From a virus, in IMG/VR virus record IMGVR_UViG_3300017779_000001: a stretch of DNA of 64,000 bases; one strand, given 5' to 3'. Under the pieces are notes generated by a model. It was given only the letters and a program-made list of their open reading frames with translations, did not search any database and was not told the DNA's origin. Shown here in pieces: positions 9,982 through 41,425 of the stretch. Each line of letters begins with the position of its first letter. The first letter of the stretch is position 1. The position numbers were made by a program, and so were the translations under genes.

Positions 9982-10277
9982 TGAAAACGTTCTCTCAACT
10001 TACAAGAGACTTATATGAGGTAAAGATGTCTTTACCCACAGGTCATAAAGAAGTTAAAGTAGAGAAGATGAGAGTTGGTGGTAAAAATTATGATATCACC
10101 TATTCACAAAAGGGTCGTGAGGTATTTGCATACGTCAACGATAACGAAACAGGCCCCTATAGGAACATGAAAGAAGCAGAGAAGTCAGTAAAAGAAATGT
10201 CTAAACTGTTCAAACAAATGAACTTTGAGGGAGTAAAAATAGAGGAGATTTTCAATGAAATTAATTTCAGAGTTTAA
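9981..10277 (+). CDS. putative prohead core/internal protein
   Basis: Position before gp21; N-terminus MKTFSQL resembles the T4 capsid-targeting sequence. Confidence 0.5.
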   Translation: MKTFSQLTRDLYEVKMSLPTGHKEVKVEKMRVGGKNYDITYSQKGREVFAYVNDNETGPYRNMKEAEKSVKEMSKLFKQMNFEGVKIEEIFNEINFRV

Positions 10278-10949: not shown

Positions 10950-12326
10950 ATGTCTAACTTAGAAAAAATGATAGCAGAGGAGATGAAAAAAGACAGTTCT
11001 GCACCTGTGGCGAAAGCCGAGAAGGGTGATGCAAAACCAGTCAAACAAGGTTCATCAGACGCTGCTGTAATTGGTTCAGGTAAGGGCGAGATTGTTAAGC
11101 CTGAAGAAAATCCTGTTGACAAAGCTGTTAAATCCGTAAAAGGTGCTGAGGCTGGGTCAAAGGAAATTTCAGGAGACCCACAACAGAAGGGTGAAGCACC
11201 TGCCGAAAAACCAGTTCAATTAAAGAAAGTAAAAGAAGAAGAAGATTCTGAAGAGTCAAAACCTTCAAAAATGGAAATGATTAAGTCTATGGTTTCATCA
11301 ATGAAATCAATGGATAAAGAAAAACTCATGGCAATGTATATGAAGTCATCTAAAGATATGGAAGAAGAAGTCGAAGTATCTGAAGATTCTACTAAAGCAG
11401 AAATTGCTAGAGCATTCGTTGAAATGATGAAGAAGAAAGACGAAGATGACGTAGAAGAGTCATTCAACTCTTTATTTGTCGAAGAAGAAGACAAAGAAGA
11501 AGAGGACGAAGACGAAGATGAAGATGAGAAAAAAGAATCAACTAAGAAAGAAGAAGTCGAAGTTGAATCATCTCTCGTAGACATCGAAGTCGATGAAGAC
11601 CTAGCTGCAATATCTGAATCTCTAGAACTTTCTGAAGAGAATACAGAAAAAGCAAAAACAATTTTCAAAGCTGCAATCAACTCGAAGGCAGCAGAAATCA
11701 ACGAACAACTCAAGTCTCAATACGAGCAAGAGTTGAAAACCACGGTTGATTCCGTCAAATCTGATTTGACTGAAGCAGTTGATAAGTACCTTTCATATGT
11801 CGCTGAAGAGTGGGCATCTGAAAATGAACTTGCAATTGAACGTGGACTAAGAGCGGAAATGACTGAAAACTTTATCGAAGGTCTGAAAACATTGTTCACT
11901 GAACATTATGTTGACGTACCTGAAGACAAGTATAACGTTATTGACGAACTTGCAAATAAACTCGATGACATGGAACTAAAACTCGATGCAGAAGTATCTA
12001 AGAATATGGATATTTCAGAAGAGATGGATTCATTAAAACGAGCTAACGTGGTCAGAGAAACTAGTGATAGTCTATCCGATTCACAAGCTGAAAAACTATC
12101 TGCATTAGCAGAAGGTGTAGACTTCAAAAGCATCGAAGACTTTAGTGATAAAGTTAACGAGTTGAAAGAAGCTTACTTCCCTGCTACTGAAACAGAAAGT
12201 ATTTCAGAAGAAACCCTAGAAGTAGAAGGTATGGGTACTCTTGAAGAGGAATCTTCAGAACCAGTACTTGACCCTTCAATGTCTAGATATGCTAGCGCAT
12301 TAAGTAAACTAAAACCATTAGGTTAA
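10950..12326 (+). CDS. gp22: prohead scaffold gp22
   Basis: Acidic coiled coil, VDKYL.YV.EEW..ENELAIE.GL; synteny. Confidence 0.92.
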   Translation: MSNLEKMIAEEMKKDSSAPVAKAEKGDAKPVKQGSSDAAVIGSGKGEIVKPEENPVDKAVKSVKGAEAGSKEISGDPQQKGEAPAEKPVQLKKVKEEEDSEESKPSKMEMIKSMVSSMKSMDKEKLMAMYMKSSKDMEEEVEVSEDSTKAEIARAFVEMMKKKDEDDVEESFNSLFVEEEDKEEEDEDEDEDEKKESTKKEEVEVESSLVDIEVDEDLAAISESLELSEENTEKAKTIFKAAINSKAAEINEQLKSQYEQELKTTVDSVKSDLTEAVDKYLSYVAEEWASENELAIERGLRAEMTENFIEGLKTLFTEHYVDVPEDKYNVIDELANKLDDMELKLDAEVSKNMDISEEMDSLKRANVVRETSDSLSDSQAEKLSALAEGVDFKSIEDFSDKVNELKEAYFPATETESISEETLEVEGMGTLEEESSEPVLDPSMSRYASALSKLKPLG

Positions 12327-12345: not shown

Positions 12346-13656
12346 ATGTTCTTATCAGAAGATTTACAAAAGAAATGGGAACCTATCTTAGAGCATTCCG
12401 ATTTACCAAAAATCGAGGATAACTACAAGAGAGCAGTCACAGCTGTTATCTTGGAGAACCAAGAGAATGCACTTAACGAAGATAGAGCAACCTTATCAGA
12501 AGCAGCTCCATTGAATGCAACTGGTTCAAGTGCAATTAGCAACTGGGAGCCAATCCTTATATCATTGGTTAGAAGAGCAATGCCAAATCTCGTAGCTTAC
12601 GACATTTGCGGTGTTCAACCAATGACTGGCCCGACAGGTCTTATCTTCGCTATGAAAGCAAGATATAACGACTATCCATCAGTGGGTAGAGAGGGTAAAT
12701 CAGAAGCATTAGGAATCAACGAACCCGTTTCATCATATTCAAGTGCAGCACAATCATCAGCAGCAGGCGCACAGCAAGCTGCAATCGGTGACCCATTTGA
12801 TACATCATCACCATCATACGAATCAACAACTGGTTCAGGAATGTCTACAGCAACAGCTGAAGCATTAGGTGATAGTTCATCAAATAGTTTTGCAGAAATG
12901 TCTTTCACAATTGAGAAAGCAACTGTTACTGCGAAATCAAGAGCACTTAAAGCTGAATACACATTAGAATTAGCACAAGACCTTAAAGCAATTCATGGTC
13001 TTGACGCTGAGTCAGAACTTGCTAACATTCTTTCATCAGAAATTTTAGCAGAAATTAATAGAGAAGTTGTAAGAAGTGTTAACCTTCAAGCAAAAACTGG
13101 AGCAGAAGATACTGCATCAGCCGGTACATTCAACCTAGACGTTGATGCTAACGGAAGATGGTCAGTAGAGAAGTTCAAAGGTCTATTATTCCAAATCGAA
13201 AGAGAATCAAACAAGATTGCTAAAGAATCAAGAAGAGGTAAAGGTAACTTTATCCTATGTTCTTCAGACGTAGCATCTGCTCTTTCTATGGCAGGAGTAT
13301 TAGATTATGCACCAGCTTTAGCAACTAACTTAAACGTAGACGACACAGGTAATACATTTGCTGGTGTTCTTAACGGAAGAGTAAAGGTCTATATAGACCC
13401 TTATGCATCTGTTAACTACCTAACAGTTGGTTACAGAGGTTCAAACCCATACGACGCAGGTATGTTCTATTGCCCTTACGTTCCATTACAAATGGTACGT
13501 GCAGTTGGTGAGAACACATTCCAACCAAAAATCGGTTTCAAAACTAGATATGGAATGATTTCAAATCCATTCGTAGGTGATACACCTTCAAGTGGTCTTG
13601 CATCAAATGGTTCTAACTTCTACTATAGAAAAATGGCTGTAAGCAATATTCTATAA
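12346..13656 (+). CDS. gp23: major capsid protein gp23
   Basis: LVRRAMPNL.AYDICGVQPMTGPTGLIFAM, KSRALKAEY..ELAQDLKAIHGLDAE, FQPKIGFKTRYG. Confidence 0.98.
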   Translation: MFLSEDLQKKWEPILEHSDLPKIEDNYKRAVTAVILENQENALNEDRATLSEAAPLNATGSSAISNWEPILISLVRRAMPNLVAYDICGVQPMTGPTGLIFAMKARYNDYPSVGREGKSEALGINEPVSSYSSAAQSSAAGAQQAAIGDPFDTSSPSYESTTGSGMSTATAEALGDSSSNSFAEMSFTIEKATVTAKSRALKAEYTLELAQDLKAIHGLDAESELANILSSEILAEINREVVRSVNLQAKTGAEDTASAGTFNLDVDANGRWSVEKFKGLLFQIERESNKIAKESRRGKGNFILCSSDVASALSMAGVLDYAPALATNLNVDDTGNTFAGVLNGRVKVYIDPYASVNYLTVGYRGSNPYDAGMFYCPYVPLQMVRAVGENTFQPKIGFKTRYGMISNPFVGDTPSSGLASNGSNFYYRKMAVSNIL

Positions 13657-13675
13657 TTAAAAGTTTAGACTTTTT

Positions 13676-13703
13676 AAAAGGACTCTTCGGAGTCCTTTTT
13701 TTT
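13676..13703. terminator. bidirectional rho-independent terminator
   Basis: AAAAGGACTC-TTCG-GAGTCCTTTTTTTT: UUCG loop, with T-tracts on both strands. Confidence 0.9.
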
Positions 13704-13992
13704 GTTTAGTGACTCTAATCGTTCAATGTCTTGGGGATTAACCCAATTCTTTACACCGTGTCCTTCTAGTGAGGCCTTACCCCAATTTTATCTAGGTCAA
13801 TAGGTAGTGACCATAAAGAAATTCGTTTACCATACTTTCCCAATTCGTCAAAAATTTCAAGTACTTCTCTGTTCGGATTCTATCCACACCTCACGATTAT
13901 ATGCCACGTCTTAATTGACTTTAACAGTGTGAACACCTTTTCTATACGGAACAACCTCTCACAACCAACTTACTTCCGTCTCGATTTCCTAC
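13704..13992 (-). ncRNA. candidate ~290-nt structured non-coding RNA
   Basis: Lies between a minus-strand sigma70 promoter and the gp23 terminator; no ORF over 40 aa; several predicted helices. Confidence 0.5.
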
Positions 13993-13998
13993 TTTACT

Positions 13999-14028
13999 AG
14001 TATACCAAAAAGTTAGGTACATTGTCAA
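13999..14028 (-). promoter_or_regulatory. sigma70-type early promoter (minus strand)
   Basis: TTGACA-atgtacctaactttttgg(18)-TATACT; spacer resembles the four early promoters at 25-29 kb. Confidence 0.8.
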
Positions 14029-14086
14029 CCTAAATACAAGGTAAAGAATAATCTTTACATTACACATACACACACAGGAGAAAAAT

Positions 14087-14305
14087 ATGAGTAATTCAGG
14101 AAAATCGGGGTTCGAAATCAGAGCCGACTTATTATCACAAGCAGAAGGACTATTGTCTCTTAATTATCAGAGGGAGGTTGACGCTATCTATATGCATAAC
14201 GAAAACAATCCTAATAATAAGAAACCTTTACCACTAAGAGAAATCACTGGTGAAGAAGTTATACAAACTGCAAGAATGTTAAATGAGTTTGTAACCGAGA
14301 AGTAA
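14087..14305 (+). CDS. hypothetical protein
   Basis: AGGAG RBS; KSGFEIRADLL.QA N-terminus. Confidence 0.7.
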   Translation: MSNSGKSGFEIRADLLSQAEGLLSLNYQREVDAIYMHNENNPNNKKPLPLREITGEEVIQTARMLNEFVTEK

Positions 14306-14319
14306 CTATAAATACTACT

Positions 14320-14556
14320 ATGGACAAATACAAAAAACAAGTTACTATTAGTGAAGGGCCGTTCGAAAGAATTGGATTTCCTAATGGAGTTGAAACCAAA
14401 AATGTTTTATCTAGACAGATGAAAACAATCTATGTTCAAGATGGATATTTGTGTGAGTCTATAGTAGACCGTGAATACAGAGATGGTGACTATCATGACA
14501 CCACAAAGAACATTAGGGTAATCAAACTAAATGACAATAAACACATCAGTTCTTAA
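14320..14556 (+). CDS. hypothetical protein
   Basis: ORF 5 nt after TATAAATA at 14307. Confidence 0.65.
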   Translation: MDKYKKQVTISEGPFERIGFPNGVETKNVLSRQMKTIYVQDGYLCESIVDREYRDGDYHDTTKNIRVIKLNDNKHISS

Positions 14557-25476: not shown

Positions 25477-25506
25477 TTGACAATGGGTCTCACTTTTTTG
25501 TATACT
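25477..25506 (+). promoter_or_regulatory. early promoter copy 2
   Basis: TTGACA-atgggtctcacttttttg-TATACT. Confidence 0.85.
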
Positions 25507-26030: not shown

Positions 26031-26215
26031 TGAATACTTATCTTAAAGAAATAACAGAATGGGATAGTAATGTTTCTAACCACACCTACATTGTAAATAA
26101 AAAAACTGAACTTGTAGGGTACATCAAGAGTGGAACTAAAGAAGAGATAATTTTTAAATCCCCTATGAAACAATTTTCAAAAGCAAGGAGGAAGTTCGTA
26201 CAAATAAAAAGTTGA
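26030..26215 (+). CDS. hypothetical early protein
   Basis: TAATG coupling; EITEW...NHTY...F.KARRKF. Confidence 0.6.
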   Translation: MNTYLKEITEWDSNVSNHTYIVNKKTELVGYIKSGTKEEIIFKSPMKQFSKARRKFVQIKS

Positions 26216-26241
26216 CAATGGGTCTCACTTTTTTGTATACT
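26212..26241 (+). promoter_or_regulatory. early promoter copy 3
   Basis: Identical to copy 2 across -35/spacer/-10. Confidence 0.85.
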
Positions 26242-28822: not shown

Positions 28823-28852
28823 TTGACAATGGGTCACACTTTTTTGTATACT
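28823..28852 (+). promoter_or_regulatory. early promoter copy 4
   Basis: TTGACA-atgggtcacacttttttg-TATACT. Confidence 0.85.
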
Positions 28853-38565: not shown

Positions 38566-38877
38566 ATGAATTTAGATATGTTCGGAAATCCTATAGGAAC
38601 TAAATACCCAGGCGAGGAGGGTTGTCCTGAAGGTATGATGTGTATTCCTGAGAATGAATTCCACTTGATGCTTACAGATAATAATATGCAATATACTGTG
38701 GAAGGAAATATTGAACCTGCTCAAGGTGATGCTGAAGCGATTATTGATTTTACAAAGGATTTACTCTTTTTAGATATTAGTGTAATCCTGAATATGGCAG
38801 TTCCCTTAACGATATTTGCAATATATGGTTTAACAATTTACGCTGCAGTAAAATACATTCAAAAGAGATTAAGTTAA
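38566..38877 (+). CDS. hypothetical protein with C-terminal TM
   Basis: ORF between curlin 2 and iscU. Confidence 0.6.
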   Translation: MNLDMFGNPIGTKYPGEEGCPEGMMCIPENEFHLMLTDNNMQYTVEGNIEPAQGDAEAIIDFTKDLLFLDISVILNMAVPLTIFAIYGLTIYAAVKYIQKRLS

Positions 38878-39281
38878 TGGCATATTCACAGAAAGTTATA
38901 GACAGATTCGAGGGTGTTCTCAATGCACCCGAACAATTTTCAGTTGGTAGATTCGACCCCAACGACCCAAACGTTGCAACAGGAATGACAGGAGCCCCAG
39001 CATGTGGTGATGTCATGAAACTGCAACTCAAACTTGACGAAAAAGAGATGATAATAGATGTCAAATTCAAAACCTATGGATGTGGAAGTGCAATTGCAAG
39101 CAGTTCGTTGTTCGTTGATTTACTCAAAGGTAAAACGATTGCAGAAGCAAAACAGATTAAAGATAAAGAGATTGCAGAAATCCTTGAATTACCTCCAATC
39201 AAATTACACTGTTCAGTCCTTGCAGAAGACTCAATCAAAAAAGCAATAGAGGATTGGGAATCTAAGAACGAGAATGTATAG
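38877..39281 (+). CDS. iscU: Fe-S cluster scaffold IscU
   Basis: GAPACGDVMKLQ, FKTYGCGSAIASSS, LPPIKLHCSVLAED. Confidence 0.95.
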   Translation: MAYSQKVIDRFEGVLNAPEQFSVGRFDPNDPNVATGMTGAPACGDVMKLQLKLDEKEMIIDVKFKTYGCGSAIASSSLFVDLLKGKTIAEAKQIKDKEIAEILELPPIKLHCSVLAEDSIKKAIEDWESKNENV

Positions 39282-41136
39282 TTGGAAAACTGTATTAGTA
39301 ACGATAAGTTTACTAGTCGGTATTAAAGTATGGAACCCATACATCGTAGAGAATATACAATGGTCATGGTTTGATTTTTTACATCAACAACACAAAGAAG
39401 TACAAGTAGACGACATTGTTCTAGTCAACATAGATGAGAAATCTATAGAGAAGTATGGTCAATACCCGTTTCCTAGAAACGTTTATGGTGATACACTATG
39501 GGACACTCATCACACTAACACCCATGTTTTTTCAATTATTTTTTCAGAACCTGATAGGTTCTCAGGAGATGAAGTATTTGCAAATGGATTAGTCAATCGA
39601 TTATCTATTTTAGGAGCTGCACCCACTACACAAAAAGATACAGGTTCTGCACCATATGTTAGAACAAGTGTGTTTGGTGGTGGAGATATTACACTTCATG
39701 CATGGAATTACGATGGAATTTTAAATCCCGTCTCTACGCTAATGGATAACACATATGGTGTGGGGGTAACGGTTGCAACTCCATCAATCTCAGGAACACC
39801 AAATTTTGACGGTACAGTACGTTCTGCACCACTCCTAGTCACTGCAAATGACGTAGTGTATCCGAGTGTAGTTTTAGAGACTCTCAGAGCATTTTATGAC
39901 CAACCCAACTACCAAACTAGAGTTACACCCGAGACAGGTATTGAGTGGATTAGAATGGGTAGAGAGAAACCTATTGAGACAACATCCACTGCAGATGTAA
40001 TGATATCTTACTGGAATAAGTTTCCCTCTATTTCTTTTGCAGACTTACCTAGTTCTGATGTTCAGAATAAGATTCTAATCTATGGTCTAACTGCAGAGGG
40101 TTTGAATAATCCAGTTTCAACCCCAGTGGGTGTAATGTATCCCCACGAAGTTCAAGCCTCTCTTTTACAAACCGTTTTGACAGGAGTTCAAATACAACAA
40201 TCCTACTATCTTGAATTCTTAGAGATTGTTCTTTTAATGACAGTCCTTCTAATGACTCTTCTTGTGGTCTACAACGTTCCCACAACTCTTGCGGCTCTAG
40301 TCTCTTTAGGAATAGTAGGTCTTCAGGTGTATGGGGGATATTGGTTATGGACTTCAAGTTACGTTCTTTTCGATACCTTCTTTTCATCGGTAGCCTCCTT
40401 GATAGTTTTTGGACATGCATCTTTCAACAAATACTATAAAACATTTCAACTCAAAGAACAAATTAAGAAACAGTTCCAAAAGTATTTATCCCCCGACATG
40501 GTTGACCAACTTGCAAAAGACCCATCAAAATTAAAGTTAGGTGGAGAGAGAAAAGAAATGACTTTCATGTTCATGGACATCTGTGGATTTACTCCAATCA
40601 GTGAACACTACAAGAACAATGATGACCCCGAAGGATTAGTTGAATTGGTAAATAAGTTTTTGGACATGCAAACTAAGATAATCCTAAATAACAATGGAAC
40701 CATTGACAAGTATATGGGCGACTGCATCATGGCATTTTGGAATGCACCTTTGGATTGTCCCGACCATTCAGAACTTGCAGTCAAATCGTCAATAGAAATA
40801 CTCGAAGCAACCAAGGAACTTAATGAAGAACTTTCTCCTCTCAATCTACCTCCTATTAATGTCGGCATCGGCATTTCCACAGGAACCTGTATTGTCGGGA
40901 ACATGGGTTCAGAACTTAGATTTGACTATTCCGTCATTGGAGATGCCGTCAACCTCGGTGCTAGACTCGAAGGCCAAACGAGAAATTATGATGGGGTTGA
41001 CGTGTTGTTATCAGAAGAAACATATAGACAGTGTACATCAAGAGCATTTTCTGAAGTCGATAGAATACTCGTTAAAGGTAAATCCGAAAAAGTTCGTATC
41101 TTCACTCCACTGGAACTTTCAAGAAAGACCATCTAG
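39274..41136 (+). CDS. CHASE2-domain class III adenylate/guanylate cyclase
   Basis: N-terminal TM, IVLVNIDEKSI..YGQYPFPR (CHASE2), 3 TMs, FMDICGFT, IDKYMGDCIMAFWNAP, DYSVIGDAVNLGARLE, VKGK. Confidence 0.92.
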   Translation: MYSWKTVLVTISLLVGIKVWNPYIVENIQWSWFDFLHQQHKEVQVDDIVLVNIDEKSIEKYGQYPFPRNVYGDTLWDTHHTNTHVFSIIFSEPDRFSGDEVFANGLVNRLSILGAAPTTQKDTGSAPYVRTSVFGGGDITLHAWNYDGILNPVSTLMDNTYGVGVTVATPSISGTPNFDGTVRSAPLLVTANDVVYPSVVLETLRAFYDQPNYQTRVTPETGIEWIRMGREKPIETTSTADVMISYWNKFPSISFADLPSSDVQNKILIYGLTAEGLNNPVSTPVGVMYPHEVQASLLQTVLTGVQIQQSYYLEFLEIVLLMTVLLMTLLVVYNVPTTLAALVSLGIVGLQVYGGYWLWTSSYVLFDTFFSSVASLIVFGHASFNKYYKTFQLKEQIKKQFQKYLSPDMVDQLAKDPSKLKLGGERKEMTFMFMDICGFTPISEHYKNNDDPEGLVELVNKFLDMQTKIILNNNGTIDKYMGDCIMAFWNAPLDCPDHSELAVKSSIEILEATKELNEELSPLNLPPINVGIGISTGTCIVGNMGSELRFDYSVIGDAVNLGARLEGQTRNYDGVDVLLSEETYRQCTSRAFSEVDRILVKGKSEKVRIFTPLELSRKTI

Positions 41137-41425
41137 AGCTTTGATGGCAGTGTATTACACACTGCAGATTGCAGACATTTGGACGACACAACGGGGAATG
41201 GATTATGAATGTGTGTACGAACAGAATCCTTTACTACCTAGAGTCCCAAGTACAGAAAGATTAATACTACACAAAGTTGTATTCACATCACCTGTGTGGA
41301 TACTAGACAAAGAAAATCTTCTCAAAAAAGGAGATGTTATATTCCCTACCATGTTAATGACATATGTTATACACCATAATTTAAAAGTTATAGATAGAGC
41401 ATCTAAAAGATGTAACAAAAGGTAA
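40823..41425 (+). CDS. secreted/membrane protein overlapping the cyclase
   Basis: AAGGA RBS, signal peptide MKNFLLSIYLLLMSASA; C-terminal ADIWTT..G......EQNPL. Confidence 0.55.
   Translation: MKNFLLSIYLLLMSASAFPQEPVLSGTWVQNLDLTIPSLEMPSTSVLDSKAKREIMMGLTCCYQKKHIDSVHQEHFLKSIEYSLKVNPKKFVSSLHWNFQERPSRALMAVYYTLQIADIWTTQRGMDYECVYEQNPLLPRVPSTERLILHKVVFTSPVWILDKENLLKKGDVIFPTMLMTYVIHHNLKVIDRASKRCNKR

Follow-up and report, generated by a model that had tools for sequence, protein, structure and literature searches.

The locus and its transcription unit

The window, a stretch of DNA of 64,000 nucleotides, derives from an uncultured marine T4-like myovirus, and its nearest named relatives by gp23 are the Pelagibacter phages Mosig and HTVC008M and the Methylophilales phage Melnitz (approximately 64% amino-acid identity). 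In this region, gp22 (10950-12326) is followed by the capsid gene gp23 (12346-13656), a pair of small ORFs (14087-14305, 14320-14556), a tail-tube/gp3-like gene and UvsY. The gap between gp23 and the next gene is 430 nt, and it harbors a unit that is read on the minus strand, convergent with gp23, which an earlier note had described as a non-coding RNA with its own promoter. The features of this unit are collected in Table 1.

Table 1. Positions of the promoter, the 3' hairpin and the structural elements of the RNA in the window
Feature	Position	Strand	Remark
-35 hexamer TTGACA	14023..14028	-	promoter-like site search
Extended -10 TGgTATACT	13999..14007	-	same cassette at 25477, 26212, 28823
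P1, 5' strand GGAAAU (leader)	13984..13989	-	partner 13817-13822; 6/6 pairs change on both sides
H1 ACGGAA...UUCCGU with conserved 22-nt GU-rich loop GUAAGUUGGUUGUGAGAGGUUG	13946..13979	-	comparison of clades
Helix A, 5' strand UCACAC (UCCACAC in all other copies)	13927..13932	-	partner 13883-13889
Core stem UGUUA:UGGCA with apical loop AAAGUCAAUUAAGACG	13899..13926	-	identical in 57 distinct cores
Helix B, 5' strand UAAUCGU (pseudoknot)	13893..13899	-	partner 13716-13722
Helix A, 3' strand GUGUGGA	13883..13889	-	covariation
H4 GUACUU:AAGUAU enclosing H5 AAUU:AAUU, with conserved GAAAUU and UUGGG	13832..13864	-	
Conserved AAACGA, then P1 3' strand AUUUCU	13817..13828	-	comparison of clades
H7 GGUCA...UGACC	13795..13812	-	99.4% paired
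PK2 (probable), H7 loop UACC with 3' strand GGUG	13803-13806 with 13754-13757	-	variant pairs
H8 UGGGG-UAAGG-CCUCA	13770..13784	-	100% paired, 4/5 pairs compensatory
H9 UUGGG...CCCAA	13731..13746	-	closing pair U-A, A-U or C-G; loop varies freely
Helix B, 3' strand ACGAUUA	13716..13722	-	family similarity ends here
Hairpin common to gp23 and the RNA	13676-13699	both	strong gp23 terminator; RNA side only UUUU

The promoter that the earlier note had read as TTGACA-18-TATACT, pointing against the genome polarity, was found at 14028-13999 of the minus strand, where it matched 11 of the 12 consensus positions with a spacer of 18 nt and the extended form TGgTATACT, and it was the best promoter-like site within 4 kb. 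Moreover, TTGACAAT was invariant in all 18 distinct close copies that were aligned, the spacer being variable, and the promoter pattern was present in approximately 95 copies of the window type. The promoter spacing predicts a start site at about 13992-13993. The end of the unit at the bidirectional gp23 terminator was likewise borne out, the hairpin being followed on the minus strand by just four U; in relatives, this position is occupied by different terminators or a tRNA.

The cassette TTGACAATG...CTTTTT.GTATACT is common to the RNA promoter and three promoters of the plus strand, and matches to the cassette pattern numbered 7 in the window, as compared with 0.64 expected. The plus-strand cassettes, TTGACAATGGGTC.CACTTTTTTGTATACT, are near-identical to one another (25477-25506, 26212-26241 and 28823-28852), and their ends are common to the RNA promoter. 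With their 18-nt spacer, these plus-strand cassettes resemble an early-promoter class specific to the phage. We infer the early timing of the RNA from its sigma-70-type promoter alone, a type common to the other early-type promoters of this phage.

Related copies and database searches

Viral contigs were searched for copies of the RNA in four word or pattern scans and metagenome contigs in a single such scan, and the copies were confirmed with nhmmer and a covariance model. The resulting family comprises approximately 165 copies on marine viral or metagenome contigs, some of the contigs occurring in both collections, and its distinct cores number more than 57. The nhmmer search gave 152 matches, 151 of which carried the core word, and the covariance model added 16. 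The comparison with Rfam that the earlier note had proposed was made with the RNA by itself against the 4227 models of Rfam 15, which include ROOL, GOLLD, manA, raiA, HEARO, RNase P, tmRNA, 6S, group I and GIR1, and it gave no match at E <= 10. Rfam searches of the surrounding 1.8-kb region returned chance-level matches to the terminator only, and those of L156 returned a match to the neighboring tRNA only. Furthermore, no copy was found in 50,697 deposited phage genomes (chance matches only at E <= 1) or downstream of gp23 in approximately 70 more distant gp23 relatives, and none of 185,579 prokaryote species genomes contained the 19-base core word. The candidates listed in a survey of viral structured RNAs (PMC10690425) measure only 29-151 nt, and the RNA in its full length therefore cannot be among them.

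Among the eleven closest gp23 relatives, the element was present in L005 only. In the other ten, the next gene begins approximately 70-125 nt after gp23, except in L009, where a gap of 480 nt holds unrelated sequence. The RNA is thus missing from several close relatives (L001-L004 and L006-L011) and is therefore dispensable. In L005, the similarity starts exactly at the -35 hexamer and ends at ...GAACGAUU (approximately window position 13715), and both flanks are unrelated. The DNA identity of the RNA was 89-99%, whereas the neighboring proteins of the same phages shared approximately 50-85%.

Secondary structure

Comparison of the copies showed a predicted fold of about ten helices, namely P1, H1, A, the core stem, H4, H5, H7, H8, H9 and the pseudoknot B, with PK2 probably forming a second, loop-to-strand pseudoknot. 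The most conserved elements are unpaired: the 16-nt apical loop, the 22-nt GU-rich loop and the A-rich junctions. The leader helix P1 occurs as GGAAGU:ACUUCC, AGGAAUC:GAUUCUU, ACAAGUA:UACUUGU and GCGAUU:AGUCGU. The stem of H1 becomes ACCCCU:AGGGGU in L173, which keeps all 22 loop nucleotides despite the different stem, and GAAGAGCU:AGCUCU in other clades, where only the loop core GUUGGUUG or GAUGGUUG is kept.

In helix A, 99.1% of cells pair, and the variants include CCACAA:UUGUGG, CCUAAC:GUUAGG, UCUAGU:ACUAGA and GUUAUAAC:GUUAUAAC. The core of clade 3 reads AAAAUC...GUGAUAU, with the outer stem kept and the GUC:GAC mini-stem broken; this mini-stem was dropped as a candidate, an A.C standing there in clade 3. 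Helix B paired in 97.5% of cells with compensatory changes in 5 of its 7 pairs (UAGUUGU:ACAACUA, UGGUAGU:ACUACUG, UGGCAUU:AAUGCCA and UGGUGUU:AACACCA), and it is absent from the covariance model, in which it could not be placed because it crosses helices A and P1. All 6 pairs of H4 showed compensatory changes, and its cognate strands taken at fixed anchors formed 5.2 of 6 pairs, as against 2.9 for non-cognate strands. H7 appears as GGUGC:GCACC, GGUGG:CCACC and GGUCG:CGACC. PK2 was 77% paired, with the variants ACC:GGU, AGC:GCU and GCC:GGC, and it was not evident in copies without H8, an optional peripheral module that clade 2, L091 and L173 lack.

Of the six helices that the earlier note had predicted, ACGGAA/UUCCGU (H1), GGUCA/UGACC (H7) and the local hairpin UUGGG/CCCAA (H9) proved real and covary. 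The enclosing helix UUCUUUAU/GUAAAGAA fails because UUCUUU pairs with the leader GGAAAU instead, the CCU/AGG hairpin gives way to the true hairpin at that place, UGGGG-UAAGG-CCUCA, and the UUGGGG:CCCCAA pseudoknot found no support, since UGGGG pairs locally, and covaries, with CCUCA. As a whole, the earlier description was confirmed in part.

A module swap was also observed. Copies that lack H8 and the GGACACGG segment (L091/L110/L231, clade 2 and L173) have an H7 loop different from that of the window type. In L091 and the majority of clade 2, this loop reads AAGGCCGAAA and includes the palindrome GGCC; GACC takes its place in some clade 2 copies, and L173 has AGAGCCGG. Because L091 is otherwise of the window type, this pattern points to recombination between variants of the RNA.

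Comparative support for the fold

The helices were first read from clade-to-clade differences and tested afterwards. The alignment A5 contained 35 representatives, realigned with a covariance model that represented none but the nested helices, and 93.3% of its structure cells paired as compared with 75.0% in shuffles, none of 500 shuffles reaching the observed value; because A5, like A4, was fitted to the nested structure, this percentage is inflated for the nested helices, and not for helix B and PK2. Changes on both sides were seen in 40 of 63 pairs, as against 8-16 in controls in which the partner columns were slid, with far fewer independent changes than the cell counts suggest because the sequences fall into approximately five clades. 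The covariation score was 0.487, compared with 0.18 for shuffles and 0.06-0.11 for the slid controls. A plain MAFFT alignment of 42 sequences, which was not fitted to any structure, gave 91.3% paired cells versus 83.6% in shuffles. Moreover, when strands were taken at fixed offsets from invariant anchors, they paired far better with their own partners than with those of other clades.

A blind scan of all column pairs for stacked, compensatory runs with at least 90% canonical pairs recovered the columns of P1, A, B, H4 and H7, register-shifted pairs of H1 and a few short runs that were taken as spurious, and it revealed no further long-range helix. The energy of the single-sequence fold was unremarkable (z = -1.0), and therefore the evidence for the structure is the comparison with relatives and not the energy. 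Covariation of this kind fits intramolecular and intermolecular pairing alike.

Coding potential

The longest ORF inside the transcript has 31 aa and a GTG start, in agreement with the earlier claim that the unit holds none above 40 aa; a 13-codon ATG frame is present too, and the start of a 43-aa ORF (13942-14073) lies upstream of the promoter. No ORF was conserved across the relatives: reading frames were broken by 1-nt indels, a stop codon was replaced in the small frames, most changes altered amino acids and no frame was common between clades. A tmRNA-like tag frame, VNEFLYGHYLLT-stop, was considered and dropped, as the frame is not kept.

The earlier note had regarded a conserved ORF in homologs, in place of covariation, as the outcome that would overturn its reading. 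The relatives showed the reverse, as is expected of a structured non-coding RNA gene: compensatory base changes keep the helices, and no ORF is conserved. Together with the lack of Rfam 15 matches, this supports its placement of the RNA in an unrecognised class. The claim that the RNA has no tRNA-like ends was also upheld. ARAGORN predicted three tRNAs elsewhere in the window and none in the unit, the Rfam tRNA model gave no match on the RNA, and neither an acceptor-like end nor a CCA is present in it.

Genomic contexts

Approximately 95 copies are arranged as in the window, with their own promoter, convergent with gp23 at 55-420 nt from its stop codon. Approximately 30 copies, from a clade with approximately 62% gp23 identity, lie on the gp23 strand in the order terminator, TTGACA-17-TATAAT promoter (12/12), approximately 145 nt, tRNA-Asp, 2-3 nt, RNA and terminator, the last being followed in most of them by an IscU-like gene. 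In other copies, tRNA-Asp stands 6 nt after the RNA or tRNA-Glu 3-21 nt after it, and some have tRNA-Ser and tRNA-Thr just upstream; approximately 45 copies adjoin tRNA-Asp, tRNA-Glu or tRNA-Thr at a distance of 2-50 nt on the same strand. In a third clade, the RNA lies behind an IscU-cyclase gene pair or between unrelated genes, and in several of these copies the RNA is preceded by a TGnTATAAT promoter of its own, which stands only a few bases ahead of P1.

Across the clades, a sigma-70-type promoter of its own nearly always precedes the RNA. An early-type promoter and a defined RNA body are constant in all contexts, and the neighboring gene and the orientation relative to gp23 vary. Pfam scans of the neighbors, among them an IscU-like protein, a methyltransferase, DUF7220 and a CxxCxxCC protein, revealed no partner gene that is kept across contexts. 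Judged by these arrangements, the unit is a portable cassette that consists of the promoter, the RNA and sometimes a tRNA.

Several further observations concern the surroundings of the RNA. In clade 2, L153 has approximately 145 ORF-free bases (9996-10141) between the 12/12 promoter and tRNA-Asp; this stretch gave no Rfam match and has no ORF above 28 codons on that strand, and it could be another small RNA or a leader. In one sub-clade (L005 and its relatives L092, L093, L101 and L105), the RNA promoter and the following head-region gene are separated by an inserted gene for a 265-aa protein with a methyltransferase domain (Pfam Methyltransf_23; 3777-4574 in L005), and the spot behind gp23 appears to be an insertion hot spot. 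On the other side, between the 3' end of the RNA and gp23, extra sequence of approximately 60 nt occurs in L086, L108 and L087 and of approximately 320-420 nt in L085, L112 and L091, and L202 and L226 have a tRNA-Asp between the RNA and the gp23 terminator.

In other phages (L159, L283, L248, L266 and the clade 2 loci), the RNA lies beside an IscU-like gene or the cyclase pair. It either immediately precedes an IscU-like gene (NifU_N) that shares 72-88% identity with window 38877-39281 or immediately follows homologues of the cyclase gene pair that neighbors the IscU-like gene of the window. In the window itself, this IscU/cyclase block (38877-41425) is approximately 25 kb from the RNA. The association may reflect either a functional link or another common insertion spot.

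RNA-library contigs

The stretch was contained in at least 11 RNA-library runs from at least ten studies. Positions 13712-13983 are covered by contigs of four studies, and these contigs, which give no strand, level or true ends, are consistent with expression. Two whole contigs measure 273 nt (13712-13983) and 267 nt (13713-13978), and a third covers 13712-13973 and then runs into a different flank; on one side the contigs end at 13712-13715, and their ends coincide with conservation borders, where assembly graphs break anyway. Positions 13596-13683 and most of 14000-14500 were uncovered in four RNA runs, which cannot be taken for silence, since the flanks differ from strain to strain and contigs give no ranking of expression.

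At 13930-13931, in helix A, the window reads UUCACAC, compared with UUCCACAC in every other aligned copy, a private deletion of 1 nt. All three spanning RNA-library contigs, from three of four runs, carry one extra base after 13930, and therefore the CC-to-C difference is private to the window copy. It may be either a private variant or an assembly error, and helix A of the window copy is still able to form through a U.G pair.

Discussion

In the present study, the flagged stretch behind gp23 was found to be, very probably, a functional structured RNA gene of a new family. As an explanation of the whole, we favor, tentatively and with nearly as much to be said for it as against it, a free-standing gene at window 13712-13993 (minus strand) that encodes a stable, trans-acting structured RNA of approximately 285 nt belonging to an uncatalogued family. 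Host RNA polymerase would start at the sigma-70-type promoter early in infection, and either the common hairpin or trimming down to the foot of helix B would define the 3' end. In relatives, tRNA-processing enzymes would cut the same RNA out of tRNA operons, so that it would be handled like a tRNA and not like an mRNA or an antisense RNA. The RNA would then act in trans as a folded particle that presents the near-invariant 16-nt apical loop and the 22-nt GU-rich loop to a partner, which may be a protein, a tRNA-related RNA or further copies of the RNA, as in ROOL, GOLLD and manA. This mechanism, a folded particle that binds a partner or self-assembles, is put forward by analogy as a plausible but somewhat doubtful proposal, and self-assembly, by analogy with ROOL, GOLLD and the phage manA RNA, is a live option within it. 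It is conceivable, although we consider it rather unlikely, that the family represents a new functional class of 'ornate' RNA of marine T4-like phages, either catalytic or assembled with itself or with tRNA-related partners into a defined particle, and carried on an early, portable promoter-RNA-(tRNA) cassette. The RNA is patchily distributed among close relatives, as accessory or counter-defence genes typically are, and this suits an accessory function, perhaps in host takeover or counter-defence.

The tRNA neighbors of approximately 45 copies, the early-type promoters of all clades, the patchy presence and a D-loop-like GUUGGUU in the H1 loop would also suit an accessory RNA directed at tRNAs, a decoy or modulator made early with the phage's own tRNAs and acting on tRNA-acting enzymes such as anticodon nucleases of host defence, tRNA-processing enzymes or tRNA-modifying enzymes. 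Such a role is unlikely, however: the RNA has no tRNA-like domain, approximately 95 copies have no tRNA within 400 nt, and the adjacency may reflect shared processing only. A new large ribozyme, in which the invariant core and the pseudoknots would form an active site, for example for tRNA-linked cleavage or ligation, is improbable. The size, helix B, the probable second pseudoknot and the many near-invariant unpaired bases match the complexity of large ribozymes, and the strand order is A 5', small domain, B 5', 3-nt linker, A 3', large insert and B 3'. The Rfam models of group I, GIR1, RNase P and the self-cleaving families nevertheless gave no match at E <= 10, the domain equivalent to P4-P6 is only a 27-nt hairpin, and the RNA interrupts no gene and displays no visible signature of a splice site or cleavage site.

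The remaining explanations are set against the fold and the contexts. The convergent arrangement of the window and approximately 95 relatives, with only four U behind the hairpin on the minus strand, would permit read-through into gp23 and thereby antisense regulation of, or transcription interference with, this late gene. The approximately 30 copies on the gp23 strand and the copies relocated far from gp23 rule out such regulation as the general function; the conserved part ends before the terminator and has no sequence in common with gp23, and the compensatory changes show selection on the fold itself, so that we regard this regulator as very improbable. That the RNA is a leader or riboswitch acting in cis on a gene or tRNA downstream is scarcely credible. 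In its favor, one may cite the hairpin with a U run and the IscU-like gene that follow the RNA in clade 2, as well as the tRNA 3-21 nt downstream in some copies. No downstream gene is constant, which rules out such a role as the general function: the window type has nothing downstream but the convergent gp23, the downstream neighbor differs with each context and tRNA-Asp stands before the RNA or after it. Finally, a decayed or very small protein-coding gene, to which the 31-codon GTG and 13-codon ATG frames might belong, has a practically negligible probability, since these frames are broken by 1-nt indels, have their stop replaced and are not common to any two clades.

Comparison with known RNAs

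The pseudoknotted arrangement of helices A and B invites comparison with catalytic RNAs. In group I introns, P3 and P7 form a pseudoknot with a strand order of this kind, and the strand order of helices A and B with their 3-nt linker resembles P3, J7/3 and P7 in topology only. In contrast to a group I intron, the RNA lacks a P4-P6 domain, a guanosine-site signature and flanking exons, and it matched none of the corresponding Rfam models. Motifs reminiscent of RNase P RNA were noticed, namely AAAGUC, ACAGAGA and UAGAUAAAA (P4 being a CR-I/CR-V pseudoknot). RNase P RNA was rejected, as the covariation-supported helices differ from the strand order P2 5', P4 5', P2 3', P4 3' and no model matched. 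The look-alikes of CR-I, CR-II and J18/2 were dropped, their strand order or variable positions being a misfit and no model matching, and those of the group I P/Q/R/S elements and of an 11-nt tetraloop receptor (UAUGG/CCUAGA) were dropped for the same reasons. By model or by strand order, the RNA is not an RNase P RNA, a group I intron, a tmRNA or manA.

In lifestyle, the RNA has its closest analogues in ROOL, GOLLD, manA and rnaC/rnaD of T4. ROOL and GOLLD measure roughly 580 and 800 nt, are often found next to tRNA genes and have no known function. They are like the present RNA in that they are free-standing, highly structured, phage-borne ncRNAs with many conserved unpaired bases. They differ from it in that they share no similarity of sequence or model with it, the RNA being approximately 285 nt long and found in marine T4-like myoviruses. 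ROOL and GOLLD have been described as large ornate RNAs of phages and prophages that form RNA-only assemblies in cryo-EM (bioRxiv 10.1101/2024.12.08.627333). The manA motif (RF01745; PMC2864571) is likewise a structured RNA of marine T4-like phages, but its Rfam model gave no match to the RNA at E <= 10, and it is smaller than 200 nt and catalogued as 5' leaders; RNA-only cages of manA are reported to assemble through kissing loops (bioRxiv 10.64898/2026.07.01.735769).

The rnaC and rnaD RNAs of T4 (species 1 and 2) are, similarly, small and stable RNAs that a T4-type phage encodes and that have no known function. They are cut out of a tRNA transcript in which the order is tRNA-Arg, rnaD, rnaC, and this position, directly beside a tRNA in one transcription unit, is found in the relatives and not in the window copy. 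They measure 119 and 139 nt and have tRNA-like 3' parts, which the present RNA does not have, and the nhmmer profile of the family found nothing in the T4 tRNA region even at E <= 100.

Large RNAs with intricate and strongly conserved folds are rare, and those that have been solved are ribozymes, guide RNAs or RNA-only cages. The present family adds a pseudoknotted example of approximately 285 nt that is widespread in uncultured marine T4-like phages, occurs in contigs of ocean RNA libraries and, as its contexts suggest, travels as a self-contained cassette from one genome position or tRNA operon to another. It offers a compact, well-defined target for probing, cryo-EM and searches for partners, and it may help to explain the stable RNAs that lie unexplained beside phage tRNAs, a question that has stood since rnaC and rnaD of T4.
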